This document shows positions 1-38,717 of a DNA stretch of 38,717 nt, one piece after another. The notes under the pieces are model-generated. The model did not search any database. It saw nothing but the letters and a program-made list of their open reading frames with translations, and was not told the origin of the DNA. The stretch lies in UHGV virus genome UHGV-0007863. One strand, given 5' to 3'. Position 1 is the first letter of the stretch, and each line of letters starts with the position of its first letter. The translations under genes and the position numbers were made by a program. This stretch comes from a virus.

Positions 1-47
1 TTAACAGCTAACTCATAGCAACTCATTCCTATTCAGATACTAATTTA

Positions 48-73
48 ACCCTCTGTTTTTACAGAGGGTTTTT
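48..73. repeat. Terminator-like hairpin ACCCTCTGTTTTTACAGAGGGTTTTT; candidate attL core (left prophage boundary)
   Basis: Stem CCCTCTG/CAGAGGG followed by a T-run; a 24/26-identical copy sits at 38685-38710, with both differences in the loop. Confidence 0.4.
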
Positions 74-125
74 GTTTTTATGTATTCATTTCTATTCACT
101 CTACACCATATTTTTCGTCGGTACA

Positions 126-165
126 GGTGACGGTATTACCTTAAAGGTATACTCTCATACCGTCA
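126..165. promoter_or_regulatory. Integrase-upstream repeat cluster: GGTGACGGTAT (126-136), inverted copy ATACCGTCA (157-165), flanking a near-operator TTACC-TTAAA-GGTAT (136-150)
   Basis: Read directly; the same 11-mer GGTGACGGTAT recurs at 38559-38569 just inside the right end, as expected for integrase arm-type sites. Confidence 0.35.
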
Positions 166-192
166 TGAAAATGGTTTCTATACGGGTGAATT

Positions 193-1449
193 GTGCTTAC
201 CGATACAAAATTAAAAAACCTCAAGCCGCAGGACAAACTGTACAAGGTCTCCGATCGTGACGGGCTGTATGTAGCTGTGCTTACGTCAGGCACGGTCTCG
301 TTTCGCTATGACTACCGTATCAACGGTCGCCGCGAAACACTGGTAATCGGGCAGTATGGGCGTGACGGTATCAGCCTGGCAGAAGCGCGAGAAGAACTGA
401 TTGCTGCAAAGAAGCTGCTTAAAGCAGGCCAGTCACCGGCTGCGGCTAAACGTGACGGTATCAAAAAGATTCGTGGTGCCGAGACGTTTGCGGTACATAC
501 CGACAGTTATATGAAACACGTCATCCTGGCTGACAGTACCCGCGCAATGAAGCAGGCGGTGATCGACCGTGACATACTTCCGGTTCTTGGCAACAAAATG
601 ATGGCTGAAATTACCACATCGATGGTTCGTGATTTGTGTGACCGGATTGTCGAACGCGGTGGTCGGGCAACAGCAGTACAGGCCAGGGAGATCATCAGCA
701 GCGTATACCGTCACGCCAATGACCGTGGTCATGGTTTGTTTAATCCTGCGGCTGACATTAAACCTTCGTCTATCGCCATATTTAAACCACGAGAGCGAAC
801 ACTGACACCAGAAGAAATTGGCCTGTTCTTCCGCACGCTGGATGCCATTGGTGCTATGGGCACTATGAAAATGGCTTTAAAGCTGGTGCTTATCACTATG
901 GTTCGTAAAGGCGAATTCACCAATGCAACGTGGGATGAAATAGATTTTAAAAAATGGACATGGACAATTCCTTCAGACCGCATGAAGGGAAGCCGGGCGC
1001 ACGTTATTTACCTGCCTAAACAGGCACAGGATATATTGGTTGGGTTGCAGATGTGCGCTGGTGGAAGTGAATATCTGGTTCCTGGTCGTTACAATTTCCG
1101 GAAGCCATTATCTAATGCCGCGCTGAACTCTCTGATCGACAGAACGGTGAAAATAATAAATGAAGATGGTGAGCATATTCAGGGCTTCACCGTACACGAT
1201 ATGCGCCGTACAGCCAGTACGTTGTTGCATGAGGCTGGTTATCCTTCAGACTGGATTGAAAAGGCGCTGGCACATGAGCAGAAAGGTGTGCGCGCCGTAT
1301 ATAACAAAGCGGAATACGCCAGACAGCGCGCCTGGATGTTGCAGCAGTGGGCCGATATGATTGATTCCTGGATTAACGGGGAGCATACGGATCTGATTCC
1401 GTTCTCCCCGTCGAAGTTTGAGAGGTGGATGGAAGACAGTAATAAATAA
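193..1449 (+). CDS. int: Tyrosine integrase, P4-type (N-terminal arm-binding domain)
   Basis: 418 aa; N-terminus LTDTKLKNLKP...YRINGRRE typical of P4-like integrases; C-terminal catalytic region with HDMRRT and a conserved Tyr region; GTG start; position at the element end. Confidence 0.9.
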   Translation: MLTDTKLKNLKPQDKLYKVSDRDGLYVAVLTSGTVSFRYDYRINGRRETLVIGQYGRDGISLAEAREELIAAKKLLKAGQSPAAAKRDGIKKIRGAETFAVHTDSYMKHVILADSTRAMKQAVIDRDILPVLGNKMMAEITTSMVRDLCDRIVERGGRATAVQAREIISSVYRHANDRGHGLFNPAADIKPSSIAIFKPRERTLTPEEIGLFFRTLDAIGAMGTMKMALKLVLITMVRKGEFTNATWDEIDFKKWTWTIPSDRMKGSRAHVIYLPKQAQDILVGLQMCAGGSEYLVPGRYNFRKPLSNAALNSLIDRTVKIINEDGEHIQGFTVHDMRRTASTLLHEAGYPSDWIEKALAHEQKGVRAVYNKAEYARQRAWMLQQWADMIDSWINGEHTDLIPFSPSKFERWMEDSNK

Positions 1450-1451
1450 TT

Positions 1452-2111
1452 CTATCCTTCCTGGACTTTGGTAAGCGTCAGATTTCCGCAGAACACTGCG
1501 CCGGTGTCGATGTACATCTGGTTTGCATACACCAGTGGGTGATGTGCTGGCGTATGACCGAAGATGAACAAATCGGCACCGGTTATCTCCGAGACAATAC
1601 CGTCCTGCGCGTCGCTAACCCGCTCACGATTCCATATCACCATTTCTTCTGGTACTGGCTTATCGAATGCGTATTCGTTGTGCGGGTAGTCTGCGTGACA
1701 GATGACGACCTTCTTATTGCCGGTAACCAGTTCGATAATCATCGGGAGGTTGGTAATCTTTGGCAGAAGGTATTTGAGTTGCACATCCTGCTCAGAATCA
1801 AGTTGGTGCCACCATCCACCGCCGTTTGACATCCAATGTCCGAAACTTCCGCCGTTGACCAGTGCATCCAGCATCATCTGCTCATGGTTGCCACGAACAG
1901 CTCGGAACCACGGCATAGTAATCAAATCCAGGCATTCGACGTTTTCAGCGCCGCGGTCAACAAGGTCACCAACGGAAATAAGCAAATCGCGCGCCGGGTC
2001 GAATGAAACTTTGTCGAGTTCGTTCATCAGCAGCGTGTAGCACCCATGCAGATCGCCGACGACGAAGATATTGCACCAGTCAGCGCCATTGATGCGTTGA
2101 TATAGGTTCAT
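1452..2111 (-). CDS. Ser/Thr protein phosphatase, calcineurin-like metallophosphoesterase (lambda NinI / PrpA-like)
   Basis: 219 aa; PPP-family motifs GDLHG, GDLVDRG and GNHE present in order. Confidence 0.85.
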
Positions 2112-2770
2112 GCTGCACGCTCCCGCCCCTGGTTGTCTGTTGGTGACAGCGGAGCATTGCTGAATGCATTTGTTAATCTGGCAATATCCAACGCGTATCC
2201 AGGGTGTAGTTGCACTGCCGGGTCTTCACACTGATTACCCCAAACATCGAAGCCATGAGACGACTGGCGGGCGAACAGTTCAATGCGAGAAACATCGCCT
2301 AACAATTGCACAAGTTTTTCACGAACGACATCTGGTTTTCTTGAGTGCTCAAGCCGCGGTGCGGTAAATGACTGAACGATCCCTGCATTAATGCGCGGAG
2401 GTAGTTTTCCCTTTACCGCAAACAGGCAATCTTCACTATTGGCGCGAGTCATGTGTCCCATACCCATAACCAGTTTATCTGGTTGTCGACTACCACATTT
2501 TATCCACGTGAAGCCCTTCATCGTCATCAGACGAAATCCCCAGGCTTCAACAACTTTTAGTGCTTCGAGTGGTTGTGTTGGCACCCACCACATGGCCAAC
2601 AGACAGTTTTCATCGGCCAAATCCCACACAGGAAGGCGGCAGATATCCAGCACACTCATAACCGGATATTTAAAACCGACACCGCGATTACCATCTGCGG
2701 CTTTGTCCCGGTATACCCAAGGTGGATCTGCATAGATTAGTGTGTATTTCTTAGTCATAAACCACCCCAC
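2108..2770 (-). CDS. MT-A70-family N6-adenine DNA methyltransferase
   Basis: 220 aa; catalytic DPPW motif in IYADPPWVY near the N-terminus; 4-nt ATGA overlap with the downstream phosphatase gene. Confidence 0.8.
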
Positions 2771-3050
2771 AACATCCTATGCCGCTATAGTCGCCACGGC
2801 GAAGGCCGTTACCTTTTGTGATACATTGGTCCCTGCGAACCGCGATCCTTGCACGCTCAACATCACCAGAAGCAACATCCATGCACTGAAGCCAAAGGTG
2901 GGCGGCAATGCGGAACTGCCCTTTTTTCTCTCTTTCAATCGCGCGTTTTTCGATCTCTATCGCCGCAGGAGTAACGGCAACAACCTTTGAAGGGCTGCGC
3001 ATTGAAACCTTGTTCATGTGATATTTTTCAAGTCGGCTTAACTTTCTCAC
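2751..3050 (-). CDS. Hypothetical protein, first gene of the phosphatase/methyltransferase sub-operon
   Basis: 99-aa ORF overlapping the methyltransferase start by 20 nt; an internal Met could be the true start; no recognisable motif. Confidence 0.4.
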   Translation of the reverse strand: MRKLSRLEKYHMNKVSMRSPSKVVAVTPAAIEIEKRAIEREKKGQFRIAAHLWLQCMDVASGDVERARIAVRRDQCITKGNGLRRGDYSGIGCCGVVYD

Positions 3051-3159
3051 TTAATCCAACCCTCTCTGAAAATTAATGCCAGCAGATAAAGCCATGCTGA
3101 AACAGAGGCCAGGAATAAGTACCATCCTGACCATTTGCTCCAGTGCCTTAGCAGCGCAC

Positions 3160-3408
3160 TCATGCAGCGTTGCTCACAGGACGATATACACGTTGCTGAA
3201 CAGGAGGTTTTTTACCCTGGAACTCTGCCGGGCTTGCTGCCTGACGTTCATCAAGCCAACGCTCAACTTCGTCACGGTTCCATGCGCAGCGTTTGTCAGT
3301 GATATACCAGCGTTTAGGAAATTCACCTGCGCGCTCCATACGGTCGATAGTGCTCCATGACAGTGGCACCACCGCCAGGAGTTCCTTCTTACCTAATGCA
3401 CCTTTCAT
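3160..3408 (-). CDS. AlpA-family phage transcriptional regulator / excisionase-like protein
   Basis: 82 aa; LLAVVPLSWSTIDRMERAGEFPKRWYITDKRCAWNRDEVERWL matches the AlpA-type helix-turn-helix pattern. Confidence 0.75.
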   Translation of the reverse strand: MKGALGKKELLAVVPLSWSTIDRMERAGEFPKRWYITDKRCAWNRDEVERWLDERQAASPAEFQGKKPPVQQRVYRPVSNAA

Positions 3409-3457
3409 AAATACCTCTCTTGGTTGCAGTGCGGCGCGCGTGGCGCCGCGGTGGTGG

Positions 3458-4339
3458 TTACATAGATGTTTCGTTTAATTCTTCCCGACGAACGCTGTAA
3501 ACGTCGGTGGCTTTTGCCAGCAGTTCGTCATCATCTGAAAGTTTTTGTGCAATGTATTTGTAAGCCTTATCCAGTTCGGAGACAGTGCTGTAATTCATCG
3601 CTGCGCTGGTAAAGGCCATCAGCATTTCTTCTGGATCACGGCTATCCGCTTTACGCGTTTGCTCATCAGGCTTTTTCGCTGGTTTAGCGTTGATCAGACT
3701 GTTCATTCCCGCAGCAGTGGTCGTTTGCGGAGTAATGTCTCGCTCAACGCGCGGTGCCGTTTCCTGTAATTCGTCAGGGGTGTAAACACCGAGAAGTACA
3801 TCAGGAGCGTGCAGGCGAGCCCATCGTTTCGTGCAAAGATAGGCAAGCTGCTGGCGCGGATCCTGTTCCCACAATGGAGAGTTACGCACTCCGGCTTGCG
3901 CCATACTGATGGTAAGCTCACGGGGTTCTGCTTCTCCTTTAAGAACTGCTGACACAGTTACCGTCAGATTCGGTGATTTATCTGTTTTGCCGTTAACATT
4001 CGACCAGTCACCGCTCCAGCGATAATTCAGGCGTGTCGCTAGCAGGCTGGAAGAGGATACGACCGCGTTTACCAACTGTGCTTCGTAGCCTAACGTTCCG
4101 TTTACCACATGCGTTTTCTGCGCCACGGCGAAAGGGTTCATTCCCCACTGTGCCGCCTGCATGGTCACCGCCAGACAATCGGCAGGTTTGCCTTCAAGAT
4201 GTTTCGGTACAGTCGCTTTGCTTTGTGACATCAACTCCGCGAAACGCACCAGTTGATTCATGCCCTCCGGGCTGAAGATTGCCGCAGCAGTACCTACAGT
4301 TGCGCCTGGTTGTGATGTGATTGCGATATCATTGCTCAT
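3458..4339 (-). CDS. Single-strand annealing protein, Bet/RecT superfamily
   Basis: 293 aa; segment AAQWGMNPF resembles the lambda Bet core (ANQYGLNPW); 4-nt overlap with the upstream exonuclease gene. Confidence 0.65.
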   Translation of the reverse strand: MSNDIAITSQPGATVGTAAAIFSPEGMNQLVRFAELMSQSKATVPKHLEGKPADCLAVTMQAAQWGMNPFAVAQKTHVVNGTLGYEAQLVNAVVSSSSLLATRLNYRWSGDWSNVNGKTDKSPNLTVTVSAVLKGEAEPRELTISMAQAGVRNSPLWEQDPRQQLAYLCTKRWARLHAPDVLLGVYTPDELQETAPRVERDITPQTTTAAGMNSLINAKPAKKPDEQTRKADSRDPEEMLMAFTSAAMNYSTVSELDKAYKYIAQKLSDDDELLAKATDVYSVRREELNETSM

Positions 4340-5157
4340 ACGTACATATCCTGTTTACGTGCCCAGTCAGGGCGTTTAATAATTTCCACTCCGCCCCATT
4401 CATCGTTGATGCGGCATTCGTGATAGGTATTCAGATCCCGGCGGAACAGAGCGTGCCCGGCATCGACATCTGGCGCATCCAGCTCGAACACGCGTACCGG
4501 ATACCGACCACAATCAATGCTTTCGCTCACGGCAAGAAAGAAAAAACCATGCGGCTGACCAGTAACCCTCATTGCGCCTTCGCGGTACATTGCGTCCTGC
4601 ACGTGGTAGCGGAATTCCTCGATGTGGCGTGCAAAACGGTCCATATCTGCAACCTTTTTCACGTCGACGATCACGTTGTGCTCGTTCAGCCATTTGTCTG
4701 GACGAATTCGGCACAACTCACCCGTCTCTTCATCGTTCCAGTACATTGATGCTTCGCAGTAACCAGGTGCTTCCAGCATCCAGCGTGCCGCCGGGTGAGC
4801 CATTGCGCTATCACGCATCAGCTCCAGTTTTCGCCACTGCTCGACATCAAGTACCGTAATACCCATATCCGCCACATCACGAAGAAATGCTTCTTCGTCA
4901 GCTTTACCTTGTTTTGTCCGACGATCGAACTTCGGTGAAACAATGAAGCGTTTGTCGAATTCTCCAGGCTCCAGAAGCAGACAGTGCAATGCGGTTCCCA
5001 TATCCAGTGCAGACTTTTTCTCTTCGTCTTCTGGTGCTGCCTGAACCCATTTCAGAAGGGCAGGGTTCTTAGCCACCATATCTAGCTGCGACTTACTCAC
5101 GCCGTCACCGGCGTGGTAGTCCTCGTTGCTGATATCGAAATAAATTCCCGGATTCAT
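4336..5157 (-). CDS. PD-(D/E)XK exonuclease, RecE C-terminal-domain-like partner of the annealing protein
   Basis: 273 aa; D-x-K signature (IVDVKKV) and synteny with the annealing-protein gene. Confidence 0.65.
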   Translation of the reverse strand: MNPGIYFDISNEDYHAGDGVSKSQLDMVAKNPALLKWVQAAPEDEEKKSALDMGTALHCLLLEPGEFDKRFIVSPKFDRRTKQGKADEEAFLRDVADMGITVLDVEQWRKLELMRDSAMAHPAARWMLEAPGYCEASMYWNDEETGELCRIRPDKWLNEHNVIVDVKKVADMDRFARHIEEFRYHVQDAMYREGAMRVTGQPHGFFFLAVSESIDCGRYPVRVFELDAPDVDAGHALFRRDLNTYHECRINDEWGGVEIIKRPDWARKQDMYV

Positions 5158-5453
5158 GCCGCGTCCCTCTGCCCATCAATCTGATCAGCCAGATCCCAGC
5201 GGGCGATAATTGCCATTGCCTCGCGCCGGTAGGCATCCATTAGTTCTTCGAACTCAGGGCTGTCTTTAGCGGCCTCCAGTACTTCCTGGCGAACGCCTTT
5301 AACTGTTACAACGTCAAAAGTTGATGCCAGTTGATGAAGCCGGATACTCTCAATCAGTTCAACTTGTCGGTCATATAGCTGTTCTGACAGGCGGTAGTCC
5401 TTGTCGAATGCCAGCATGATTTTTTGAAGATTTTTCTGCTGATTAACGTTCAT
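5154..5453 (-). CDS. Hypothetical early protein
   Basis: ORF track gives 5154-5468; the internal ATG at 5453 (MNVNQQ...) has a strong GGGAGGG Shine-Dalgarno 6 nt upstream, so the shorter start is preferred. Confidence 0.5.
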   Translation of the reverse strand: MNVNQQKNLQKIMLAFDKDYRLSEQLYDRQVELIESIRLHQLASTFDVVTVKGVRQEVLEAAKDSPEFEELMDAYRREAMAIIARWDLADQIDGQRDAA

Positions 5454-5455
5454 TA

Positions 5456-5608
5456 TCAGCCCTCCCATATCTCGTTATCGTTGGCCACATCGCGAGCTTC
5501 TTTGCTGACGAAAGCCCACTTAATGCCTTCCTGTAATGTGCGGAACTTCCAGCTCATGAATCCGCATGCAGTAACGCAGTACCAACCGTTGATGATTTTC
5601 CACTGCAT
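5456..5608 (-). CDS. Candidate small protein (50 aa, Trp-rich), first gene of the leftward early operon
   Basis: Hand-translated: MQWKIINGWYCVTACGFMSWKFRTLQEGIKWAFVSKEARDVANDNEIWEG; GAGGT 8 nt upstream of ATG; below the ORF-track size cut-off. Confidence 0.3.
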   Translation of the reverse strand: MQWKIINGWYCVTACGFMSWKFRTLQEGIKWAFVSKEARDVANDNEIWEG

Positions 5609-5627: not shown

Positions 5628-5704
5628 TTACCGTTGAGGTAATAATTATGCGTATCTGGTTTGATGTCAATAGATATGAGTTAAAAAAATTACCCGTTAG
5701 GTAA
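5628..5704. promoter_or_regulatory. Two perfect TTACC-N5-GGTAA palindromes (5628-5642, 5690-5704); candidate leftward operator (OL-like)
   Basis: Read directly: TTACC-GTTGA-GGTAA and TTACC-CGTTA-GGTAA in the intergenic gap between the repressor terminator and the leftward operon. Confidence 0.6.
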
Positions 5705-5761: not shown

Positions 5762-6346
5762 TTATTGTTTGCTTTTTTCGTTCTGGTTGATGACAAATTC
5801 AATGTAACTTTCGATCTTTGCTTTCTCGGTTTCGGGTAACAATGCGTAGCGTGAGCGGTCATAGTTGATAGTCGCAGGGTCGTGCGGGTGAATCAGTAGT
5901 TCATATCCGTGACGCCCGAATGCGGATGCAACATTCTCCAGGGTGGAAATGGAAACGCTGACCTCATTGTTTAACAGGCGGCTGATTGTCACCTGGGCGA
6001 CGCCGGATGCGCGGTGAAGTTTTCCCTGTGTTGAAAGGTCGCGGCTTTCGCTCATCCAGCGTTCCAGGTTGTGAGCCGCCAGCTGACCTATATCGCTCGG
6101 GCCGACAGGCTGAAAACCCTCCTGAGAAAGCGAACGATCAATATCAAGCCAGTTACGGGGTTTATTGGCGGCAGCTTCAATTTTTCGTGCAACCTGGTCG
6201 CCGATAACCTTCTTGCCAAGAGCCCAGCGGTTTACCAGATTTGCCTGAGTTCCAAGTTTTTCTGCCATCCGCGTCTGAACACCATTGAATTCACGGTCGA
6301 TCAAGTCGTTGAGATTTTGCCTGCGGACGTCCTGGATACTTTTCAT
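5762..6346 (-). CDS. Prophage repressor (CI-like) with two HTH-like segments and no recognisable S24 peptidase domain
   Basis: 194 aa; HTH-like segments GVQTRMAEKLGTQANLVNRW and SGVAQVTISRLLNNEVSVSISTLENVASAF; no Ser-Lys dyad domain seen; divergent from a cro-like gene. Confidence 0.7.
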   Translation of the reverse strand: MKSIQDVRRQNLNDLIDREFNGVQTRMAEKLGTQANLVNRWALGKKVIGDQVARKIEAAANKPRNWLDIDRSLSQEGFQPVGPSDIGQLAAHNLERWMSESRDLSTQGKLHRASGVAQVTISRLLNNEVSVSISTLENVASAFGRHGYELLIHPHDPATINYDRSRYALLPETEKAKIESYIEFVINQNEKSKQ

Positions 6347-6401: not shown

Positions 6402-6464
6402 TTACCCAACAGGTAAATGCACCTCATAGGTAACTATCCTTGATTTTTGTTACCTTATGGGTGA
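6402..6464. promoter_or_regulatory. Tripartite operator between repressor and cro-like genes: TTACC-CAACA-GGTAA (6402-6416), GCACC-TCATA-GGTAA (6419-6433), TTACC-TTATG-GGTGA (6450-6464)
   Basis: Three copies of the same dyad in the 154-bp divergent intergenic region, overlapping a -35-like TTGATT at 6440-6445. Confidence 0.65.
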
Positions 6465-6500: not shown

Positions 6501-6731
6501 ATGAGCGATAACGGACATTTCGATTTCAAAAAGCACTGGCTTGCACTTACTCCGGATGAGCGTGAAGCCTTCGCACAGGAAGCCGGAACGACGAGTCACT
6601 ATATCCAGACTCACTTAACAGGTAAGCGCAAAATGCCAGGTAAGGTATTGATGAATGGGCTTTTTAAAGCCTGTAAAACAAGACAATGGCTGCGCTCAAA
6701 AGCAGAACTGGCATACTTCTTCTACTCATGA
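6501..6731 (+). CDS. Cro-like HTH regulator
   Basis: 76 aa; divergent from the repressor across the operator cluster; HTH-like AQEAGTTSHYIQTHLTGKRKMP. Confidence 0.6.
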   Translation: MSDNGHFDFKKHWLALTPDEREAFAQEAGTTSHYIQTHLTGKRKMPGKVLMNGLFKACKTRQWLRSKAELAYFFYS

Positions 6732-6753
6732 TATCCAGCTACAACCCTCTGTA

Positions 6754-6778
6754 GACCGCCACCCGGCGGTCTTTTCAT
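6754..6778 (+). terminator. Rho-independent terminator downstream of cro-like gene
   Basis: GACCGCC-ACCC-GGCGGTC followed by TTTTC. Confidence 0.55.
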
Positions 6779-8688: not shown

Positions 8689-8765
8689 TTACCTTCTGGG
8701 TAATAAAATATTCTAAAATCTATTGATTTCGTGTCTTATGTGGTTTTTAATTACCTCTTGGGTAA
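8689..8765. promoter_or_regulatory. Two perfect TTACC-N5-GGTAA palindromes (8689-8703, 8751-8765) upstream of the nin-like block
   Basis: TTACC-TTCTG-GGTAA and TTACC-TCTTG-GGTAA; the second ends 3 nt before the ATG at 8769; preceded by a weak GC hairpin plus a 7-T run at 8657-8676. Confidence 0.6.
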
Positions 8766-9113: not shown

Positions 9114-9174
9114 ATCGACGATCTTTTTAGTTATCAATGTAATCAATAAGTTATGTGGATAAGCGAGGGTAAAG

Positions 9175-10124: not shown

Positions 10125-10132
10125 GGCTCCGC

Positions 10133-11381: not shown

Positions 11382-11382
11382 G

Positions 11383-11793: not shown

Positions 11794-11795
11794 TA

Positions 11796-12058: not shown

Positions 12059-12068
12059 GGAGTAACAC

Positions 12069-13514: not shown

Positions 13515-13522
13515 CATGTCAC
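13511..13522. repeat. 12-bp perfect palindrome GTGACATGTCAC, copy 1 of 3
   Basis: Read directly; overlaps the TGA stop of the 13176-13514 gene. Confidence 0.7.
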
Positions 13523-30555: not shown

Positions 30556-30560
30556 ATTAA

Positions 30561-33035
30561 ATGAGACAGGAATGTATACAAGCGGTCCAGCAGGCGGCGC
30601 AGCGCACGTTAACGGCGCGAGAAATACAGAACATTGAAGACCGCATTTATCGAAATATGCGCTCCATTGCTCGTGATGACCCGATGTCGTGGAGACAACT
30701 TTCCGAATCAGAGCGGCTATATCGTGCAGCACAATTGGCATCTGAAGAATTACAGCGAGAAGCGGCATTAAGGAAACGTCGTGTGGCCCTCACTATAGCC
30801 GCACGTCAGAGATTGGATAAATTTATCAATAGCTATCAAGGGTCTGATGGGAAACTTGGCGCTCTTAACCGTACTATTGCTTTTAATGCAGACGGTAAAT
30901 CGAATTTCCTCTCTGTTGAATCCAGAACAAAAGCCACTCGTGATTATGCATTGAGTCAATTGCAGGAGGCATTTGAAGCAGTTGATCCTCGCTTTTTTGG
31001 CCTGTTTGAAGATGAAGCTGGCGTGCGTGACCTGGTATATGAAATGCGAGGGCAAAATACTGGCAATGCTAAAGCAAGAAAAGGTGCTAAGGCGTGGAGA
31101 GAAGTGACAGAGCTACTGCGCCGCCGGTTTAATGATGCTGGTGGGGACATTGGCTATCTCGAAAACTGGGGGATCCCTCAACATCATTCTATGGAAAAGG
31201 TTGGGGCGGTATCAAAGGATAAGTGGGTTAGCGATGTTATAGGTAAGCTGGATCGCAAATATTATATCCGAGCCGATGGACAACTGATGAACGATGCCGA
31301 GTTGTCTTCATTTCTTGGAGAGGCTTATAACACGATCGCTACTGGTGGGCTGAATAAGCTTACTGATACCGGAATGCGAATTTCCGGCGCACGTGCTAAC
31401 CGTGGTAATGCATCACGACAGATACATTTCAAAGATGCAGATTCCTATCTGCAATATCAACAACTTTATGGCGATCGCTCTCTATGGGAAATCATGGTCG
31501 GTCACCTGGAAGGTATCAGTAAAGATATTGCACTGGTGGAAACATATGGCCCAAACCCCGATCATGTTTTCCGCTCTCTTCTTGATCAGGTGAAGGCAGA
31601 AACGGCAACAGCTAACCCGAGTAAAACCGGTAAAGTCGAGCGGCTGGCGAACAACACAGAGAATCTGTACAACTTTATTTCCGGAAAGACACAGCCTGTA
31701 GCGAATCCGCACATCGCGCGATGGTCTGACAATATCCGCAACTGGCTGGTTGCCAGCAGACTCGGATCCGCGTTGCTGTCATCGTTCTCTGATCTTGGAA
31801 CCATGTATCTGTCTGCGAAGGTGACCAACCTTCCAATGAACCAGTTATTCCGCAACCAGCTTGAAGCTATGGACCCAACGAACCGTACAGAACTTGCGCG
31901 GGCGCGCCGCGCTGGTCTGGCGATGGAATCTCTACTTGGCAGCGTTAACCGCTGGGCGATGGATAATATGGGGCCGTCTGTGTCTCGTTGGGCTGCAACG
32001 GCGGTAATGCGTGCCAGTGGGCTTACAGCATGGTCAGATGCGCACAAGCGCGCCTATGGCGTAACCATGATGGGAAGCCTGGGAGAAGTAGTGTCACGGA
32101 CACCAGACCTTCGTAGCCTCGATGATTCTGATTTTCGTATCCTGAAAAGCAAAGGGATTACTGACACAGACTGGAGCGTATGGAAGCTGGCTCAACAGGA
32201 GGACTGGGGGAACGGCAATAATACGATGCTGACACCGGAAAGCATTATGCGTATCCCTGATTCAGCAGTTAAACATCTTGGTGAGCCTGAACGCGTGAAA
32301 TTTGAGGCAATGCGTAAACTGCTCGGTGCCGTAACTGAAGAAGTTGATATGGCTGTTATTACACCGGGAGCACGTGAGCAACTGATAACCGGTTCTGGTA
32401 TTCAGCGTGGAACATGGAAAGGTGAATTAACGAGAAGTGTTTTCCTGTTTAAATCGTTCCCTATCTCGGTGGTTATGCGTCACTGGTCACGCGCTATGGG
32501 TATTCCGTCTGCTGGTGGGCGTGCGGCATATATTGCGACGTTTATTGCCAGTACGACCATTCTTGGCGCTTTGTCGCAGCAACTTAACGACCTTGCGTCT
32601 GGTCGTAATCCTCGCGAGATGACAGGAGAAGATGCTGCTAAATTTTGGCTTGGTGCTCTACTGAAAGGTGGTGGTCTTGGCCTTTACGGTGACTTTTTAT
32701 TGTCAGATCACACTAGGTACGGAAGCGGCGCACTGGCGTCGATGCTTGGCCCGGTAGCTGGTCTGGTTGATGACGTAGTGAAGATTGCTCAGGGCATACC
32801 GTTAAATGCTGTGGAAGGGAAGAATGAGCAGACTGGTGGTGATCTGGTTAAGCTGGGGAAAGGTCTGATGCCAGGTGCGAATCTCTGGTACTTAAAGGCG
32901 GCTCTCGATCACATGATCTTTAACCAGATGCAGGAGTATTTTTCACCAGGTTATTTGCGTAAAATGGAGCAACGTTCGAAGAAAGAGTTTAACCAGACAT
33001 ACTGGTGGCGACCACAGGATGTCACTCCGCAATAA
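30561..33035 (+). CDS. Large internal virion / ejection protein (T7 gp16 position)
   Basis: 824 aa; last gene before the moron island and tail fiber. Confidence 0.45.
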   Translation: MRQECIQAVQQAAQRTLTAREIQNIEDRIYRNMRSIARDDPMSWRQLSESERLYRAAQLASEELQREAALRKRRVALTIAARQRLDKFINSYQGSDGKLGALNRTIAFNADGKSNFLSVESRTKATRDYALSQLQEAFEAVDPRFFGLFEDEAGVRDLVYEMRGQNTGNAKARKGAKAWREVTELLRRRFNDAGGDIGYLENWGIPQHHSMEKVGAVSKDKWVSDVIGKLDRKYYIRADGQLMNDAELSSFLGEAYNTIATGGLNKLTDTGMRISGARANRGNASRQIHFKDADSYLQYQQLYGDRSLWEIMVGHLEGISKDIALVETYGPNPDHVFRSLLDQVKAETATANPSKTGKVERLANNTENLYNFISGKTQPVANPHIARWSDNIRNWLVASRLGSALLSSFSDLGTMYLSAKVTNLPMNQLFRNQLEAMDPTNRTELARARRAGLAMESLLGSVNRWAMDNMGPSVSRWAATAVMRASGLTAWSDAHKRAYGVTMMGSLGEVVSRTPDLRSLDDSDFRILKSKGITDTDWSVWKLAQQEDWGNGNNTMLTPESIMRIPDSAVKHLGEPERVKFEAMRKLLGAVTEEVDMAVITPGAREQLITGSGIQRGTWKGELTRSVFLFKSFPISVVMRHWSRAMGIPSAGGRAAYIATFIASTTILGALSQQLNDLASGRNPREMTGEDAAKFWLGALLKGGGLGLYGDFLLSDHTRYGSGALASMLGPVAGLVDDVVKIAQGIPLNAVEGKNEQTGGDLVKLGKGLMPGANLWYLKAALDHMIFNQMQEYFSPGYLRKMEQRSKKEFNQTYWWRPQDVTPQ

Positions 33036-33231: not shown

Positions 33232-33528
33232 ATGCAAGCTATAGGATTCATTGTTTATATCGTCGTTGGTCTTTTTCAGTTGGCAGCAATTATGGCTGGG
33301 CTTGAATCATGGTGGGGATTGCACTGGATAATTGCAGCCCCCATTGCTTTCATCGTGAGCTATATTCCATTTGTTGGAGCGATTGTTGGTATGGTTGGCG
33401 CTGTGGATGTATGGCGGTGGGAGTGGTGGCAGGCTGGCCTTCTCTTCTTTGGTGGGATCATCTTTGCTATTGTCTGCGGTGGAATGTCATCATTTTTCGA
33501 ATGGCTATCATTCAGAAAAGGGACGTGA
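33232..33528 (+). CDS. Small polytopic membrane protein (moron)
   Basis: ATG 33232 with AGGTGA upstream; 98 aa, almost entirely hydrophobic; preceded by an AT-rich stretch at 33036-33231. Confidence 0.5.
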   Translation: MQAIGFIVYIVVGLFQLAAIMAGLESWWGLHWIIAAPIAFIVSYIPFVGAIVGMVGAVDVWRWEWWQAGLLFFGGIIFAIVCGGMSSFFEWLSFRKGT

Positions 33529-33536
33529 CATGTCAC
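33525..33536. repeat. 12-bp perfect palindrome GTGACATGTCAC, copy 3 of 3
   Basis: Read directly; overlaps the TGA stop of the membrane-protein gene. Confidence 0.7.
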
Positions 33537-33537
33537 A

Positions 33538-33562
33538 GGCCGCTTTCGCGGCCTTTTCTTTA
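33538..33562 (+). terminator. Rho-independent terminator after the membrane-protein gene
   Basis: GGCCGC-TTTC-GCGGCC followed by TTTTCTTTAT; overlaps the 3' end of the convergent minus-strand gene. Confidence 0.6.
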
Positions 33563-33817
33563 TGTGGTTTGTTTTCGTAATTGTTCGGCACAATAGTCGA
33601 GATGTGTTTGCAGATCCCGCATAGACATCTGTGAGCTGGTGACGTAGTTAATCAGTGCAGTCAGTTCGGCAAGTGGGCCATCGACATTAAATCCATCCTT
33701 ATCGAGATCCCGGAGTAATTTCATCAAGTGCGATCCTTCCACCAGTGACCTGACGCCTCCCGGCGTGTGAATCCTTTCGGTAAATCCGTCTTCCAGTGGA
33801 TAGTGATACTGCTGCAT
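33560..33817 (-). CDS. Small LexA-box-associated protein; candidate SOS-inducible antirepressor
   Basis: 85 aa from ATG 33817 (MQQYHYPL...), GGAG 8 nt upstream; ORF track gives a TTG start at 33835; a LexA box sits 20-40 nt upstream; function is inference. Confidence 0.5.
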   Translation of the reverse strand: MQQYHYPLEDGFTERIHTPGGVRSLVEGSHLMKLLRDLDKDGFNVDGPLAELTALINYVTSSQMSMRDLQTHLDYCAEQLRKQTT

Positions 33818-33836
33818 CTTATCTTCTCCATGCAAT

Positions 33837-33856
33837 AACTGTATATTTATACAGTA
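33837..33856. promoter_or_regulatory. LexA (SOS) box AACTGTATATTTATACAGTA
   Basis: CTGT-N8-ACAG with AT-rich spacer; 18/20 to the consensus TACTGTATATATATACAGTA; overlaps the likely promoter of the minus-strand gene. Confidence 0.75.
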
Positions 33857-33893: not shown

Positions 33894-33908
33894 TTACCTG
33901 AAAGGTAA
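33894..33908. promoter_or_regulatory. Perfect TTACC-TGAAA-GGTAA upstream of the tail-fiber gene
   Basis: Read directly; a half-site GGTAA at 33955-33959 follows. Confidence 0.6.
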
Positions 33909-34012: not shown

Positions 34013-36142
34013 ATGACGGTCTCAACCGAAGTTGACCACAACGAATACACCGGTAACGGCGTTACGACATCGTTTCCGTATACTTTTCGAATTTTCAGAA
34101 AATCAGACCTGGTTGTTCAGGTGTCTGACCTGAACGGGAACGTAACAGAATTGGTCCTGGATACCGGTTATACGGTAACTGGGGCGGGCACTTATAGTGG
34201 CGGTTCTGTGGTTCTTCTGTCTCCGCTTGCTACTGGATGGCGAATTACGATAGATCGTGTGCTTGATGTAGTGCAGGAGACAGACCTTCGCAATCAGGGA
34301 AAATTTTTCCCCGAAGTGCATGAAGATGCCTTTGACTACCTGACGATGCTGATCCAGCAATGTTTTGGGTGGTTCAGACGTGCATTGATGAAGCCCTCTC
34401 TGCTTGCAAAATATTACGATGCAAAGCAAAACAGAATTTCTAACCTTGCAGATCCATCACTTGAGCAGGATGCTGTAAATAATCGCTCAATGCGTAATTA
34501 TGTCGATGCTGCAATCGCCGGGGTTGTTGGTGGTTTTGGTTGGTTTATTCAGTATGGTTCTGGGGCTGTGCACCGAACGTTCCAGGATAAGATGAGAGAC
34601 ACCATTAGTGTTCGTGATTTTGGTGCAAAAGGAGACGGCATAACAGATGATACTGTAGCAATTCAAAATGCTATTAATGCAGTACCAGAAGGGGCTATAC
34701 TTGGATTTTATGGTGGTGAATTTGTTTTTGATAAGGTTGAATTGTTTAAGCCAATAACATTAGTTGGTGATGCAACGTTAATTCACAACGGATTTAGAAT
34801 AAAATCTAGCAGAATCCGATCACTTTTATCTGGCGTTCAGAAATGCAAGGATTACTCCGAGTCTTCAAGAGCATTTTATTGCTATGCAAATGAAGACCAA
34901 AGAGATTATGACGATATTCAGATTTTATTTAATAGATTTGAAGGTTTCTTTTACTCTACGGCATTTGTTGCAAAAAACTATTATTTGGAGAATGACCCTA
35001 ATTCAAGAATTGTCAAAAACACAAAAGTAATAGGGTGTACATCAGTTGCTCCTGATTCTGTAAATGCCGGTCATTTTCAACATATAGGCGTTACAAATGC
35101 TGAAACATCACATAACTCAACTTATGGCGGACAAAATGCAACATCATACAACTTCATTAACCAGAATGGATTTGTAAGGATTATAGGAAATTATGACCAT
35201 AACAATAGCTATGGTTCATGTGAGCTTGAGAACTCAATGGTGAGTAACTCAGTCATATCAGGTAATACGTTTTCGTCATATTTATGGGTGGATGATACAA
35301 GTAATGTTACTATTTCTGGAAATACAGTTTCATCAGGGATCAAAGTAACATCGCAAACTGACGATGTTCATAATATAACCATATCAGCAAATACCACAAA
35401 ACGGATTACTATAGAGCAATTTGGAGAATCTCCAACAGGTCTGGTATATGGTGCATTAATTTCCTGCAACACTATTACTGGCGACAGTGATGGAAGTTCA
35501 GACATTTTATGTACGTCACTTGTTACAGGTGAAATTTCATCAAATTATTGTCATGGATCAGAAAAAAATATATCAATTGTCCGCCTGGATTCTTCTGATA
35601 TAACCGTTAGAAACAATAAAGGAAACAAAGGATTACTTACAATAAGTAACGATGGTGGAAGGATAATTGAATATGGCAATGATTCTATGGTTCTGTCTGG
35701 AAGCATAGATAGCAGACATATACATAATTTATTACATCCAGACACATCGTATTTAGATCTACCGGGGAAATATCTGCACGGAACTAAATATACTGGCAGT
35801 ATCCCCCCCGGTTCCACAGGAACTGTATCACTTCAAATACCATCAGGGGCAAGCCTTGTTTTCAGGGGGGTTTCTATATGGGTTCTAATTAGAGATGTTA
35901 GCAATAACAATATATCGTCATTCAGAATTGATGGTTCATATAGAGTTGTTGGTGGAAGTGTTGGTCTTAGTTTTGCTGATGCTTATTCGAAACTCGGGGT
36001 GGATGCAAACTCTATAACAGTGTCAAACAATAACAGCACTTCTGACAATATCAGCATAGCAATTAAAAACACAGATTCATCAAAAACCCTTCAGGTTACT
36101 GTTATGCCGGAGGTTTCAAGCAGGTTAGGTATTGAGGAATAG
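34013..36142 (+). CDS. Tail fiber / tailspike with T7 gp17-like N-terminal adaptor domain and beta-helix-like, AT-rich distal domain
   Basis: 709 aa; N-terminus parallels the T7 tail-fiber N-terminal pattern; distal part has repeats such as NVTISGNTVSSGIKV...NITISANTTK; base composition turns AT-rich from about 34600. Confidence 0.75.
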   Translation: MTVSTEVDHNEYTGNGVTTSFPYTFRIFRKSDLVVQVSDLNGNVTELVLDTGYTVTGAGTYSGGSVVLLSPLATGWRITIDRVLDVVQETDLRNQGKFFPEVHEDAFDYLTMLIQQCFGWFRRALMKPSLLAKYYDAKQNRISNLADPSLEQDAVNNRSMRNYVDAAIAGVVGGFGWFIQYGSGAVHRTFQDKMRDTISVRDFGAKGDGITDDTVAIQNAINAVPEGAILGFYGGEFVFDKVELFKPITLVGDATLIHNGFRIKSSRIRSLLSGVQKCKDYSESSRAFYCYANEDQRDYDDIQILFNRFEGFFYSTAFVAKNYYLENDPNSRIVKNTKVIGCTSVAPDSVNAGHFQHIGVTNAETSHNSTYGGQNATSYNFINQNGFVRIIGNYDHNNSYGSCELENSMVSNSVISGNTFSSYLWVDDTSNVTISGNTVSSGIKVTSQTDDVHNITISANTTKRITIEQFGESPTGLVYGALISCNTITGDSDGSSDILCTSLVTGEISSNYCHGSEKNISIVRLDSSDITVRNNKGNKGLLTISNDGGRIIEYGNDSMVLSGSIDSRHIHNLLHPDTSYLDLPGKYLHGTKYTGSIPPGSTGTVSLQIPSGASLVFRGVSIWVLIRDVSNNNISSFRIDGSYRVVGGSVGLSFADAYSKLGVDANSITVSNNNSTSDNISIAIKNTDSSKTLQVTVMPEVSSRLGIEE

Positions 36143-36170
36143 CATCATATATAATTATTTTAATGTTAAT

Positions 36171-36218: not shown

Positions 36219-36518
36219 ATGATGAATATAGAAGTTGATATAACACCAATTCTTCACGCACTTTGCGCTGTTGTCGCACAAGTTCTTGTTGGTCTTTTTA
36301 CCGGAAACTGGGCTTACGGTGCGATAGCCGGTTGTACGTTCTTCATTGCGCGTGAACACACCCAGGCAGAATATCGCTGGATAGAAAAGTTTGGGAAAGG
36401 GAAACGTATCAACATGCCGTGGTGGGGAGGTTTTGATCCGCGCGTATGGGATGTTGGAAGCCTGTTTGACTTTGTTGTTCCTGTTACTGTTTGTTTTTGT
36501 GTTTATTTCTCTATTTGA
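36219..36518 (+). CDS. Hypothetical membrane protein between tail fiber and lysis cassette
   Basis: 99 aa with hydrophobic N- and C-terminal segments; weak Shine-Dalgarno. Confidence 0.45.
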   Translation: MMNIEVDITPILHALCAVVAQVLVGLFTGNWAYGAIAGCTFFIAREHTQAEYRWIEKFGKGKRINMPWWGGFDPRVWDVGSLFDFVVPVTVCFCVYFSI

Positions 36519-36740
36519 CTGCTACCGCGCCATTTGATGGTGCGGAATTCAACTAATCCTCTATATTTTGAATCATTTCTGTACTGCAATCTCTTCAGAG
36601 TTATGTAAAAGGCAAGCCTTATTATCGACATGAAAGGAAGGGGATTGACAATACATGGGTAACAAAAAACCATAAATGGTTTATCATGCATAATGCCTTT
36701 ACTATTCAGGAGGTAGTTATGCATATAAACGGTGGAAAAC

Positions 36741-37145
36741 ATGTCAGCTCAACTAACCAGTGAAACTTTAAATCAGTGGCTTAGCATGAGTTCTCTGGCG
36801 GCGGTGATAGCAGGAGTTCCTCCTGAGGTTGCTTTGGGGGCTTTGGCTGGGGCGGTAATTTTTGTTACCTCTGCGGTAGAGTATCCTATTCGTCGTCGTG
36901 TACTCTTGTCGATGCTTAGCTTTCTCTGCGGCCTTCTTTTTTATAAACCAGCAGCATCAATTCTTATCGGCATAGCCAGCCTGATCCCTACCATCACGCA
37001 GGACTCTTTTGAAAAAGGGATTGTTTTCTCAGTTGGCGCATTCGTGTCAGCAATTGTTGCTGTGCGTATTGGTATATGGCTCTATCACCGTTCCGATAAT
37101 CCACGCGAGTTAATTCCGGGGAGAAAAGACGATGGTAACGCATGA
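36741..37145 (+). CDS. Putative holin
   Basis: ATG 36741 with GGTGG 5 nt upstream; ~134 aa with three to four hydrophobic helices and a charged C-terminus; first gene of the lysis cassette. Confidence 0.55.
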   Translation: MSAQLTSETLNQWLSMSSLAAVIAGVPPEVALGALAGAVIFVTSAVEYPIRRRVLLSMLSFLCGLLFYKPAASILIGIASLIPTITQDSFEKGIVFSVGAFVSAIVAVRIGIWLYHRSDNPRELIPGRKDDGNA

Positions 37146-37440
37146 GTTTTTTTTGCTTATCACCAATGCAGTTATTTGTACTGGCATAGCAATTCGCGTT
37201 GTCACATTCCGGCGTAACGGCTCTCAACATCGAAGATGGGGAGGGTGGCTTGCTTATTTCCTTATTGTTGCTGCGGCCAGTATTCCTGTTCGTGTCGTCT
37301 ATGCAATCTGGTTACGCACGCCAATGGCTGTGGATTTATCTGAGGTCATTATCAACGCTGTCATGCTCGCCGCGGTTATTAAAACACGCGGTAACGTTGT
37401 TCAGATTTTCAAAATATCGAGGTCTAAACATGGAGATTAA
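37132..37440 (+). CDS. Second small membrane protein of the lysis cassette (holin or antiholin-like)
   Basis: 102 aa with at least two transmembrane segments; overlapping stop/start with holin and endolysin. Confidence 0.45.
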
Positions 37441-38059
37441 ACAATTCCAGCGAGCTGCTGGTATTAGCGAGTCGCTGGCCGCACGCTGGTTCTCGCATAT
37501 AACTTCTGCGATGAAAGAGTTTGGTATCAGCAAAGCAGAAGATCAGGCAATGTTTATTGCTCAGGTCGGGCATGAGTCTGGGGGCTTCACCCGGTTGCAG
37601 GAGAATTTCAACTACAGCGTCAGCGGTCTGGCTAACTTTGTTCGGGCTGGGCGTCTCACTCAGGGACAGGCCAACGCATTGGGGCGACGCGCAGGCGAAC
37701 CACCATTGCCACCTGAGCGCCAGAGAGCGATTGCCAATCTGGTGTACAGCAAACGCATGGGTAACAATGCTCCTGGCGATGGCTGGAACTACCGTGGGCG
37801 CGGACTTATCCAGATTACCGGTTTGAATAACTATCGTGATTGTGGAAACGCTCTTAAGGTTGACCTGCTGGAGAGTCCTGAATTGCTGGCGCAGGACGAA
37901 TACGCGGCTCGTAGCGCGGCGTGGTTCTTCTCCAGCAAAGGCTGCATGAAGTATACCGGAGATATTGCACGTGTAACTCTGCTTATCAATGGTGGCCGGA
38001 ACGGCATTGATGACCGGCGCGCGCGATACATCACTGCCAGTAAGGTGCTGGCGTTATGA
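37430..38059 (+). CDS. Endolysin, glycoside hydrolase family 19-like (chitinase-fold lysozyme)
   Basis: ATG 37430 in frame within ORF 37199-38059; motifs [12 protein letters not shown] and [12 protein letters not shown] recalled as typical of GH19-type endolysins; position between holin and spanins. Confidence 0.65.
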
Positions 38060-38553
38060 TCTGGGCATTCGCAAAAGCATACTGGAAACAGTTGGTTATC
38101 ATGGCGATGCTTGCTGTTCTGGTCATATCAGGAGTTGTAGCCTGGAATGCACACGGCATTCGTCAGTACGACGCCGGGTATGCGCAGGCACAGGAAGATC
38201 AGAAACAGGCTGATGATAAGGCCAGGTCACAACGTGATCAGGAGAAAACACAAATTGAACGTGAAGCACAATCCCGTATCGATGTGGCGCGTGTTGATGC
38301 TGAGCATGCTAATGCCGCTGCTGACAGCCTGCGCGCCGAGCTTGACAAAACCAAGCGACTCGCCGAACACTATACCGGATCTTTCCCCACTGGCACGCCA
38401 GCCAGCAAGGTCATCGGTGTGCTCGCCGACATGCTTGAAGAAAGCAACCGAGTTTACAACGCAACAGCAACTGAGGCTGAAAAGTATCGGATTGCAGGAG
38501 AATCCTGCGAACAGCAATACGATTCACTGAAGAAGCAAAAATCGTGGCACTGA
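38056..38553 (+). CDS. i-spanin (Rz-like)
   Basis: 165 aa; N-terminal transmembrane helix, charged coiled-coil periplasmic domain; immediately after the endolysin. Confidence 0.65.
38282..38530 (+). CDS. o-spanin (Rz1-like lipoprotein) nested in the +1 frame of the i-spanin gene
   Basis: [16 protein letters not shown]|C lipobox-type signal, Pro-rich mature region; entirely inside 38056-38553. Confidence 0.6.
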   Translation: MWRVLMLSMLMPLLTACAPSLTKPSDSPNTIPDLSPLARQPARSSVCSPTCLKKATEFTTQQQLRLKSIGLQENPANSNTIH

Positions 38554-38558
38554 TTTCC

Positions 38559-38569
38559 GGTGACGGTAT
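38559..38569. repeat. GGTGACGGTAT, copy of the left-end arm-like 11-mer
   Basis: Identical to 126-136; followed by a partial repeat AACGGTACGGTG. Confidence 0.3.
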
Positions 38570-38684
38570 ATAAAACGGTACGGTGAAAATCAGGTTGCAG
38601 AAAGTTATTATCAGTCAATTGGTTATGTGTGTCGTAAATAATTGAGTGGGAATGATTTTGATCCCTGCACTATGAATGAACAAA

Positions 38685-38710
38685 ACCCTCTGTTACTACA
38701 GAGGGTTTTT
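38685..38710. repeat. Terminator-like hairpin ACCCTCTGTTACTACAGAGGGTTTTT; candidate attR core (right prophage boundary)
   Basis: 24/26 identical to 48-73; also serves as terminator of the lysis operon. Confidence 0.4.
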
Positions 38711-38717
38711 TATCTTC

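Follow-up and report, generated by a model that had tools for sequence, protein, structure and literature searches.

Sequence analysis places UHGV-0007863 among the guaA-integrated prophages of the genus Uetakevirus as a further mosaic variant

The temperate podoviruses of the epsilon15/phiV10 group belong to the genus Uetakevirus, to which the NCBI taxonomy assigns phiV10, epsilon15, and phiv142-3. The genus criterion of the International Committee on Taxonomy of Viruses is about 70% or more nucleotide similarity across the genome. The sequence ATTGAGTGGGAATGATT has been published as the exact attP/attB core of phiV10, epsilon15, and ZX5, and the same source reports a short tail for ZX5 as seen by transmission electron microscopy (TEM) (PMC9782041). 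In the Rep/Ant type of immunity, which comprises a repressor (Rep) and an antirepressor (Ant), the SOS response works through the antirepressor (PMC9638917). The solved tail 8ck0/8ck1 belongs to the marine podovirus Carin-1 (PMC13317679). Here we compare with these systems the UHGV virus genome UHGV-0007863, a stretch of 38,717 nucleotides (nt) that we call the window. The window is almost certainly one complete prophage of the genus Uetakevirus, integrated at guaA via the 17-bp core ATTGAGTGGGAATGATT. The initial annotation had proposed an epsilon15/phiV10-type temperate podovirus, and the nucleotide matches, synteny, att core, and Rep/Ant genes all agree with this. Positions are those of the window, and genes and att cores are on the plus strand unless the minus strand is given.

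Both halves of the window were used as megablast queries against 50,697 phage records. The Uetakevirus phages phiv142-3, vB_EcoP_ZX5, HEMP4, TL-2011b, and phiV10 match at 97–99% identity over 77–97% of the length, and PAS61 and the O157 typing phages 9 and 10 are also among the matches at 97–99%. The next tier, at 76–82% identity, consists of epsilon15, SPN1S, SPC32H, and Tyrion. ZX5 shares 83–87% of the length at ~98% identity, and ZX5, HEMP4, and TL-2011b cover 57–90% of the two query halves. Intergenomic similarity, calculated for the prophage part only as blastn-based identity multiplied by coverage, is 0.84 with phiv142-3, 0.76 with phiV10, 0.37 with epsilon15, 0.02 with lambda, and 0 with T7. 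The genus-level similarity of ~70% is therefore reached with phiv142-3 and phiV10, not with epsilon15. Gene-by-gene comparison shows that the gene order of the whole genome is kept in phiV10, phiv142-3, and epsilon15. The phiV10 counterparts are mostly syntenic with 93–100% amino acid (aa) identity, with lower values for RecT (74%), Rz (51%), and the P-like protein (82%), among others. Most genes are full length and have a counterpart with 93–100% aa identity in phiV10, phiv142-3, or both; in this joint comparison, Rz/Rz1 (51%) and the P-like protein (82%) are among the exceptions, as are the DnaT-type initiator and several accessory genes.

Some observations weigh against this assignment. No deposited phage attains an identity × coverage of 0.95 or more; the highest figure computed, 0.84 for phiv142-3, indicates a different species-level genome from any single record. 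No phage record and none of the 5426 complete Escherichia coli genomes covers at least 80% of the segment 8600–13760 at a single locus. In addition, the proposed binding of Rep and the direct repression of late units, described below, would draw on the annotation of relatives. The Uetakevirus-type architecture is already known, and the prophage is a further mosaic variant of a named genus. Where it departs from its relatives, it does so in swappable cassettes only, namely the accessory region, small morons, the allele of Rz/Rz1, and the part of the tailspike that binds the receptor.

Both ends of the prophage can be located. In E. coli chromosomes with the same integrase, guaA ends at the base preceding window position 1, and yfgI adjoins the right end of the window. 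The last 15 nt of guaA together with window bases 1–2 are identical to positions 38641–38657, yielding the 17-bp core. The attL core thus contributes its last 2 nt to the window (1–2), its first 15 nt being the final bases of guaA immediately outside the left edge, and the attR core occupies 38641–38657, as located by alignment with phiV10 attP. When the attP region of phiV10 is aligned to both window ends, the crossover is visible. Positions 38658–38717 are host DNA carrying the native guaA terminator, which accounts for the near-universal E. coli matches to the last part of the window. The int region is found in 564 of the 5426 complete E. coli genomes; about one in ten of them has this integrase region at guaA. 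The lysis cassette, which had been placed at the extreme right, lies there in the prophage and mid-genome in the packaged maps of phiV10 and epsilon15, because the prophage permutation places attP between Rz and int.

The immunity genes resemble those of SPC32H. The prophage repressor gene (5762–6346, minus strand) encodes a protein of the SPC32H Rep type with a double helix-turn-helix and without an S24 peptidase domain (Pfam), which matches SPC32H Rep (PDB 5D50 chain A) with an E value of 3.5e-42. A cro-like small repressor gene (6501–6731; PHROG) is divergent from the repressor gene and is followed by a terminator (6753–6772) and then by an operator-like site at 6787. The 86-aa product of ant (33560–33820, minus strand) matches the SPC32H antirepressor (PDB 5D50 chain E) with an E value of 6e-47, and a perfect LexA box, CTGTATATTTATACAG (33839–33854), lies ~20 nt upstream of ant. 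The sequence elements of an SPC32H-type switch are thus complete, and the Rep match, the Ant match, and the LexA box together argue for Rep/Ant-type immunity with SOS acting via the antirepressor. Judged by these sequences, immunity is of the SPC32H type with a putatively LexA-controlled antirepressor, not of the type of lambda CI autocleavage. The counterpart of ant is annotated as 'hypothetical' in phiV10, phiv142-3, and epsilon15.

The 1.95-kb Bro-N-type 'anti-repressor' cassette of phiv142-3, with its three small open reading frames (ORFs), is missing from the window, as it is from epsilon15; a Bro-N 'anti-repressor' cassette is carried by phiv142-3, phiV10, and ZX5. The missing block, together with the lack of the O-antigen modification gene of phiV10 and epsilon15, could mean that the window holds a defective (cryptic) Uetakevirus remnant, no longer inducible or particle-forming, but the small Ant with its LexA box is present, and epsilon15 has the same arrangement, likewise without the Bro-N cassette. 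Moreover, int is intact, both att cores are present, and every gene for terminase, head, tail, ejection proteins, tailspike, and lysis retains its full length, with 95–100% identity to plaque-forming relatives, Rz/Rz1 being divergent (51%) yet full length. We regard a defective remnant as unlikely.

Palindromes of the form TTACC-N5-GGTAA are strongly enriched in the window, with 13 sites at no more than one mismatch compared with 0.66 expected. One site with one mismatch lies upstream of int (136–150). Two perfect sites (5628 and 5690; 5628–5704) surround the leftward promoter as an OL equivalent, and two sites (6402 and 6450; 6402–6464) lie between the repressor and cro-like genes as an OR equivalent. 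Two perfect sites (8689 and 8751; 8689–8765) precede the accessory-gene block, two sites (13787 and 13805; 13787–13819) lie between a terminator (13750–13767) and the start of terS (~13822), and single perfect sites precede the head-tail operon (16952–16966) and the tailspike gene (33894–33908). Besides the site at 6787, a site at 36865 is located inside a holin-family gene, perhaps by chance. Operator-like palindromes thus precede every transcription unit, late ones included. PhiV10, phiv142-3, and epsilon15 have 14–15 such sites each at syntenic places, compared with a single one in T7 and in lambda. In the RefSeq record of epsilon15, binding sites for the 'repressor' are annotated at matching relative positions.

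These sites suggest how the prophage may be controlled. In the lysogen, Rep would occupy the TTACC-N5-GGTAA sites and thereby hold the early promoters together with the units of int, the accessory genes, terS, head and tail, and the tailspike. Upon DNA damage, LexA would leave the box before ant, and Ant would be made. Ant would then disassemble Rep, as expected from the SPC32H homologues (PDB 5D50), and all units would be derepressed. The positions of the sites are computed here, and the binding of Rep to them is suggested by the epsilon15 RefSeq annotation and the SPC32H literature. One repressor that silences each unit directly, with Ant opening all of them, would be the most economical reading. 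Such distributed repression may account for the prophage having no need of a Q-type antiterminator or a phage RNA polymerase. The initial annotation had recognized neither, and Pfam and six-frame tblastn searches bear this out; for T7 RNA polymerase, no ORF has a Pfam match, and the best six-frame tblastn match has an E value of 0.31 over 52 aa. Rep of the window and Rep of epsilon15 share only 43% identity, yet the operator half-sites are kept, and one may ask what determines the specificity of immunity.

A second class of palindrome is associated with a gene that closes the early-right operon (13176–13514). Its product is a 112-aa basic, Cys-rich protein of the epsilon15 gp49/N15 gp46 family, predicted to be a 'transcriptional regulator' (phrog_536). 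Its N-terminus is basic, and six of its cysteines are invariant (C40, C79, C82, C91, C93, and C99). The family has 719 homologues; the 120 listed are all unnamed and without Pfam domains. Phmmer searches with the protein against PDB, Pfam, and NCBIfam are all empty. Its AlphaFold2 model, from an alignment of 36 sequences, has a predicted local distance difference test (pLDDT) score of only 65, and a Foldseek search against the PDB yields nothing (best E value 3.9). Alignment of the family with lambda Q by hhalign gives a probability of 0.3%, which leaves the idea of a hidden Q unsupported.

The palindrome GTGACATGTCAC has three perfect copies in the window, compared with 0.04–0.13 expected. 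Copy 1 (13511–13522) overlaps the stop codon of the 112-aa gene, copy 2 (15962–15973) lies beside the terL terminator hairpin, and copy 3 (33525–33536) is directly followed by the terminator of the head-tail operon (33537–33554). The general form GTGAC-N2-GTCAC has three copies at the same places in epsilon15 (positions 39612, 2142, and 19517) and in phiv142-3, where one copy has a different central dinucleotide, and two copies in phiV10. It overlaps the stop codon of the homologous gene in five of seven unrelated phages, with a variable central dinucleotide: a Yersinia P2-like phage, phiKO2, an Enterobacter Ravinvirus, Pantoea AH07, and a Vibrio phage. In Vibrio phage K308, one copy follows the homologue at a distance of 225 nt and another precedes terS by 30 nt. 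The palindromes in the homologue loci are at 3797 (L009), 3767 (L010), 2776 (L011), 2767 (L012), 2767 (L014), and 4005 and 6720 (L008). In the comparison with phiv142-3, megablast breakpoints fall 1–2 nt beyond two of the three GTGACATGTCAC palindromes.

From these sequences, it is a tentative and rather doubtful proposition that the 112-aa protein and GTGAC-N2-GTCAC form a conserved, so far uncharacterised, regulator/site pair. Such a pair could be an early-to-late switch, working by terminator read-through or activation, that replaces Q. Alternatively, palindrome and gene could be a conserved junction for cassette exchange. A role of the protein as a general Q substitute is weakened by other genomes: homologues co-occur with Q-like antiterminators in phiKO2 and Pantoea AH07, and the homologous gene adjoins xis/int in AH07 and Vibrio phages, which makes a general replacement of Q doubtful.

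The gene order of the virion module parallels that of T7, including a holin and spanins behind the fibre gene. The portal protein (17278–18957) belongs to Pfam family PF12236, that of T7 gp8, and matches the Carin-1 portal. A Bbp19-like gene separates the portal gene from the gene for a 233-aa protein in the scaffold position (19247–19948), which carries the label 'protease' in PHROG and RefSeq. This protein has no peptidase family, PDB, or NCBIfam match, and BLASTP finds nothing between it and the T7 gp9 scaffold; its N-terminal half is acidic and Pro-rich, and 'scaffold' is as good a guess as 'protease'. The capsid-shell genes (19957–22158; Pfam) encode the major capsid protein (PF20911), a Bbp16-like protein, a 114-aa ORF product, and an epsilon15 Gp10-like staple, the last three being small head genes between capsid and adaptor that have no T7 counterpart. 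The capsid protein is closest to that of BPP-1 (3j4u, E value 9.5e-129), ahead of epsilon15 gp7 (3j40), and T7 gp10 is unmatched. Relative to epsilon15, the module is mosaic within the genus: the capsid-shell proteins (19957–22158) have 36–43% aa identity and the two large ejection proteins (28753–33035) 28–32%, compared with 81% for the portal, 85–88% for adaptor and nozzle, and 77–94% for the terminase.

The tail adaptor (202 aa) and tail nozzle (823 aa) are encoded at 22155–25234. The AlphaFold2 model of the adaptor has a pLDDT score of 87, and Foldseek matches it to the Carin-1 connector (8ck1_E) with an E value of 1e-15. The model also matches T7 gp11 (7box; E value 6.5e-6, template modeling score ~0.6, 13% identity) and adaptors from further podoviruses, including many T7-like ones; hhalign of the adaptor family against T7 gp11 is negative. 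By sequence, the portal matches that of Carin-1, the 823-aa protein its 'tail nozzle', and the N-terminus of the tailspike its tail fibre (8ck0/8ck1). The initial annotation had described a gp11/gp12-sized pair and three internal proteins. The adaptor indeed has the gp11 fold, the nozzle is not in a T7 family, and five genes for internal/ejection proteins of 154, 181, 837, 600, and 824 aa (25234–33035; Pfam/PHROG), not three, lie between the nozzle gene and the operon terminator, with two small ORFs 3′ of the 824-aa gene. The 181-aa protein belongs to PF24072, the T7 gp14 family, and the 837-aa protein has a predicted peptidoglycan-hydrolase domain at approximately residues 249–398.

The virion would thus have a T7-family portal, a gp11-fold adaptor, a nozzle, and ejection proteins with a peptidoglycan hydrolase, and, by analogy with relatives, probably six beta-helix tailspikes. 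Homology of the tail parts with Carin-1 and T7 and the TEM of the relative ZX5 suggest that it would be short-tailed. With regard to siphovirus or myovirus families as best matches of the structural proteins, podovirus tail machines only are matched, namely that of Carin-1 and the T7 gp11 fold.

The overall gene order from int through recombination, repressor/cro, replication, terminase, and structural genes to lysis is present as first described (Pfam/PHROG), with an order that is lambda-like on the left and T7-like on the right. This order, the portal and the 181-aa protein in T7 Pfam families, and accessory pieces with 92–97% identity to Stx-converting and P22-like lambdoid phages could be read as a recent, novel hybrid between a lambdoid early half and a T7-like virion half. 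However, nucleotide alignment with T7 is zero, and the structural proteins have no tblastn match to those of T7 in either direction. A Pfam scan of T7 gp8–gp17 finds only PF12236 (portal) and PF24072 (gp14) in common with the window; capsid, scaffold, nozzle, and fibre fall outside T7 Pfam families, and the likeness of the adaptor to T7 gp11 is at fold level only. On the lambda side, only P, an Ea22 piece, and the NinI-like gene are shared. Furthermore, the layout is found across epsilon15, phiV10, SPN1S, and others, indicating that it is old and genus-wide and that the window is not a new hybrid. A recent hybrid origin is accordingly extremely improbable. What remains of 'lambdoid' is the arrangement, the homology being thin and without tblastn matches for cI, cro, cII, N, O, or Q; what remains of 'T7-like' is the gene order, the portal and gp14 families, and the gp11 fold, the remaining families being different. 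From the sequences, the combined label is overstated and appears to reflect shared organisation and remote homology. The kinship with T7 is ancient, and epsilon15/BPP-1/Carin-1 type is the more fitting description of the module.

In the replication region, the place of O is taken by a DnaT-domain initiator (PF17948; 7055–7903), so the protein first called O-like does not belong to the lambda O family. The P-like assignment holds: the next gene (7875–8651) encodes a helicase loader of the lambda P family (PF06992), 39% identical to lambda P and 82% to its phiV10 counterpart. A patchwork accessory region follows (8769–13183; Pfam/PHROG), with DUF1064, Ead/Ea22, DUF551, NinX, and unknowns. It had been called nin-like, which is correct for NinX; the rest is of the other types just named, and the NinI-like gene sits beside int. 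Much of the accessory block is missing from the three relatives compared (phiV10, phiv142-3, and epsilon15). The DUF1064 protein (8769–9113) has a weak tblastn match to T7 endonuclease I (41% over 39% of the length, E value 8e-4). The corresponding map position of epsilon15 carries a RuvC-like resolvase, so the DUF1064 protein may be the junction resolvase here. A 77-aa ORF (phrog_1541; 13511–13744), after which the terminator at 13750–13767 comes, is also missing from the three relatives, and ~13515–13723 is inserted in comparison with phiV10 and phiv142-3.

The accessory pieces have 92–99% identity to sequences of plasmid-borne prophages and of Stx-converting, P22-like, and mEp phages; in the three phage types, at 92–97%, they are Ead/Ea22, EaA, DUF551, and NinX genes. 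A P22-like (Lederbergvirus) prophage would likewise be a temperate podovirus with a beta-helix tailspike, NinX, and Ead/Ea22 and EaA-type accessory genes, and short nucleotide matches to P22-like phages exist. However, these matches are accessory patches of 50–850 nt, split over two or three pieces in some records. The portal is of the T7 type (PF12236), the capsid is of the epsilon15 GP7 type (PF20911), and the best matches of the structural proteins are not P22 gp1, gp5, gp4, gp10, or gp26. The adaptor, nozzle, internal proteins, Rep/Ant, and guaA integration all fit Uetakevirus, so that a P22-like prophage is hardly credible.

The fibre gene, first described as gp17-like, encodes a tailspike with a pectate-lyase-type beta-helix (34013–36142; Pfam/PHROG), and PF03906, the N-terminal family of the T7 tail fibre, is not found in it at an E value of 0.01. 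Its N-terminal anchor (residues 1–183) is conserved in the genus. The receptor-binding part (~34650–36150) has a guanine-cytosine (GC) content of 33–38%, compared with ~50% elsewhere, which points to foreign origin; only phiv142-3 and EC.W1-9 share this part, at 99%. This spike type has been seen in prophages of O1, O5, O51, and O102 strains (PMC10408124). The slot that holds oac in phiV10 and O-antigen conversion genes in epsilon15 contains a 99-aa ORF (36219–36518) for a hydrophobic, probably membrane, protein (phrog_1443); unlike phiV10 and epsilon15, the window has no O-antigen modification gene. Phrog_1443 is widespread among unrelated E. coli phages.

The lysis cassette (36732–38553; Pfam/PHROG) encodes a holin-family membrane protein, a holin, a GH19 endolysin, and Rz/Rz1. 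Rz (38056–38553) is full length and 51% identical to that of phiV10, and the Rz1 lipoprotein, with the lipobox LLTAC, is embedded in it (38282–38530). The Rz/Rz1 allele differs from those of phiV10, phiv142-3, and epsilon15 (~50% aa identity), and the endolysin is 95–97% identical to those of phiV10 and phiv142-3. The divergent Rz/Rz1 beside a conserved endolysin indicates that the lysis cassette contains a recombination breakpoint near 38200.

At the left end, the tyrosine integrase (193–1449) has arm-binding and catalytic domains (Pfam) and is 99% identical to phiV10 Int; its gene is intact here and split in phiv142-3. The leftward operon (1452–5608, minus strand; Pfam/PHROG) includes genes for a NinI-like Ser/Thr phosphatase (1452–2111; 67% identical to lambda NinI), an MT-A70 adenine methyltransferase (2108–2770; Pfam), a PerC-family protein (2751–3050; Pfam), an AlpA/excisionase-like protein (3160–3408; Pfam) whose epsilon15 homologue is annotated as excisionase, RecT (3458–4339; Pfam; 74% identical to that of phiV10), and a PD-(D/E)XK RecE-like exonuclease (4336–5157; Pfam), with two small ORFs beyond the exonuclease gene; all six named genes are on the minus strand. 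Among ten accessory proteins searched with PADLOC, the methyltransferase is the sole match. The NinI-like gene adjoins int at the far end of the operon, outside any nin region. It is missing from the three relatives compared, and phiV10 has a DUF1382 ORF at this place.

On the right, the terminase small subunit starts at ~13822, and the large subunit is encoded at 14412–15887 (both Pfam/PHROG). The longest-ORF start of terS, TTG at 13741, is an artefact; translation truly begins with the ATG at ~13822, in agreement with the annotation of phiv142-3 and epsilon15, and the terminator hairpin at 13750–13767 and two operator-like sites fall inside the TTG extension. The terminase does not lead straight into the portal, as had been described: 1.4 kb (15888–17277) intervene, containing an N4 gp49/Sf6 gp66-family gene (15978–16349, minus strand; Pfam) that is missing in phiv142-3, a tRNA-Arg gene with anticodon UCU (16553–16629, minus strand; Rfam), an operator-like site, and a 68-aa ORF. 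The tRNA is the sole match of the Rfam scan. It lies on the strand opposite the late genes, is followed by ~430 nt of non-coding DNA up to the head operon, and is also present in phiv142-3, ZX5, and O157 typing phages.

As the layout is textbook for a genus of common E. coli and Salmonella prophages, the architecture itself matters little. The practical value lies in correct annotation of the integration site, of a Rep/Ant instead of a CI-type switch, and of the tailspike type. The research potential lies in the timing of late genes without a Q-type antiterminator or an own RNA polymerase, for which the distributed repressor sites and the palindrome of the 112-aa protein are two directly testable hypotheses.

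Among known systems, phiv142-3 (MN187550, Uetakevirus; 0.84) is the closest record. It covers window positions 14000–38717, from terminase to Rz, by 97% at 98.8% identity, and it has the same low-GC tailspike (99%) with the 99-aa ORF behind it. The window alone has the intact int, the NinI-like phosphatase, the 77-aa ORF, and the N4-gp49/Sf6-gp66 gene; phiv142-3 alone has the 1.95-kb Bro-N antirepressor cassette; and the DnaT-type initiator, most of the accessory block, and the Rz/Rz1 allele (51% aa identity) differ. PhiV10 (NC_007804, species Uetakevirus phiV10) shares the gene order and att core, with identities of 99% for the integrase, 99% for the repressor, 100% for the cro-like protein, and 97–100% for head, tail, and ejection proteins. 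Its tailspike is shared over the N-terminal 23% only, its accessory genes differ, its RecT and RecE-like genes are fused where those of the window are separate, and it has the oac O-acetyltransferase and a Bro-N gene, neither of which is in the window.

Epsilon15 (NC_004775), the type of the group, has the same architecture gene for gene, the same att core, the same ant-tailspike arrangement, and the operator palindrome and GTGACATGTCAC at the same relative places. It differs in its lower similarity (0.37), in a repressor that is 43% identical, and in other alleles of the capsid shell and two ejection proteins, and it has O-antigen polymerase/inhibitor genes, a cytosine methylase, and a RuvC-like resolvase of its own. 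Compared with the SPC32H switch (PDB 5D50), Rep and the 86-aa Ant of the window match both solved chains and the LexA box precedes ant; Rep is a divergent allele and Ant is highly conserved.

T7 (Autographiviridae) has in the same order the portal, scaffold position, capsid, adaptor, nozzle, internal proteins, fibre/spike, holin, and spanins. Unlike T7, the window is temperate, is without an RNA polymerase, DNA polymerase, or primase-helicase, has its terminase before rather than after the virion genes, has capsid, scaffold, nozzle, and fibre in other families, and has extra capsid decoration genes. Lambda shares the order of int-xis-recombination, divergent repressor/cro, replication, and accessory genes, and searches from the window side find the P-family loader (39%), the NinI-like phosphatase (67%), and an Ea22 piece; NinX is a further lambdoid likeness. 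Six-frame tblastn of lambda proteins against the window detects P (39%) and, weakly, int, but no cI, cro, cII, N, O, or Q. In contrast to lambda, the window has no CI-type S24 repressor, its lysis genes are not behind a Q gene, and its virion module is unrelated. The Bordetella phage BPP-1 and the Cobetia phage Carin-1 infect different hosts, and the comparison with them covers virion genes: BPP-1 resembles the window in the major capsid protein and the Bbp16- and Bbp19-like genes, and Carin-1 in the portal, connector, nozzle, and spike anchor.

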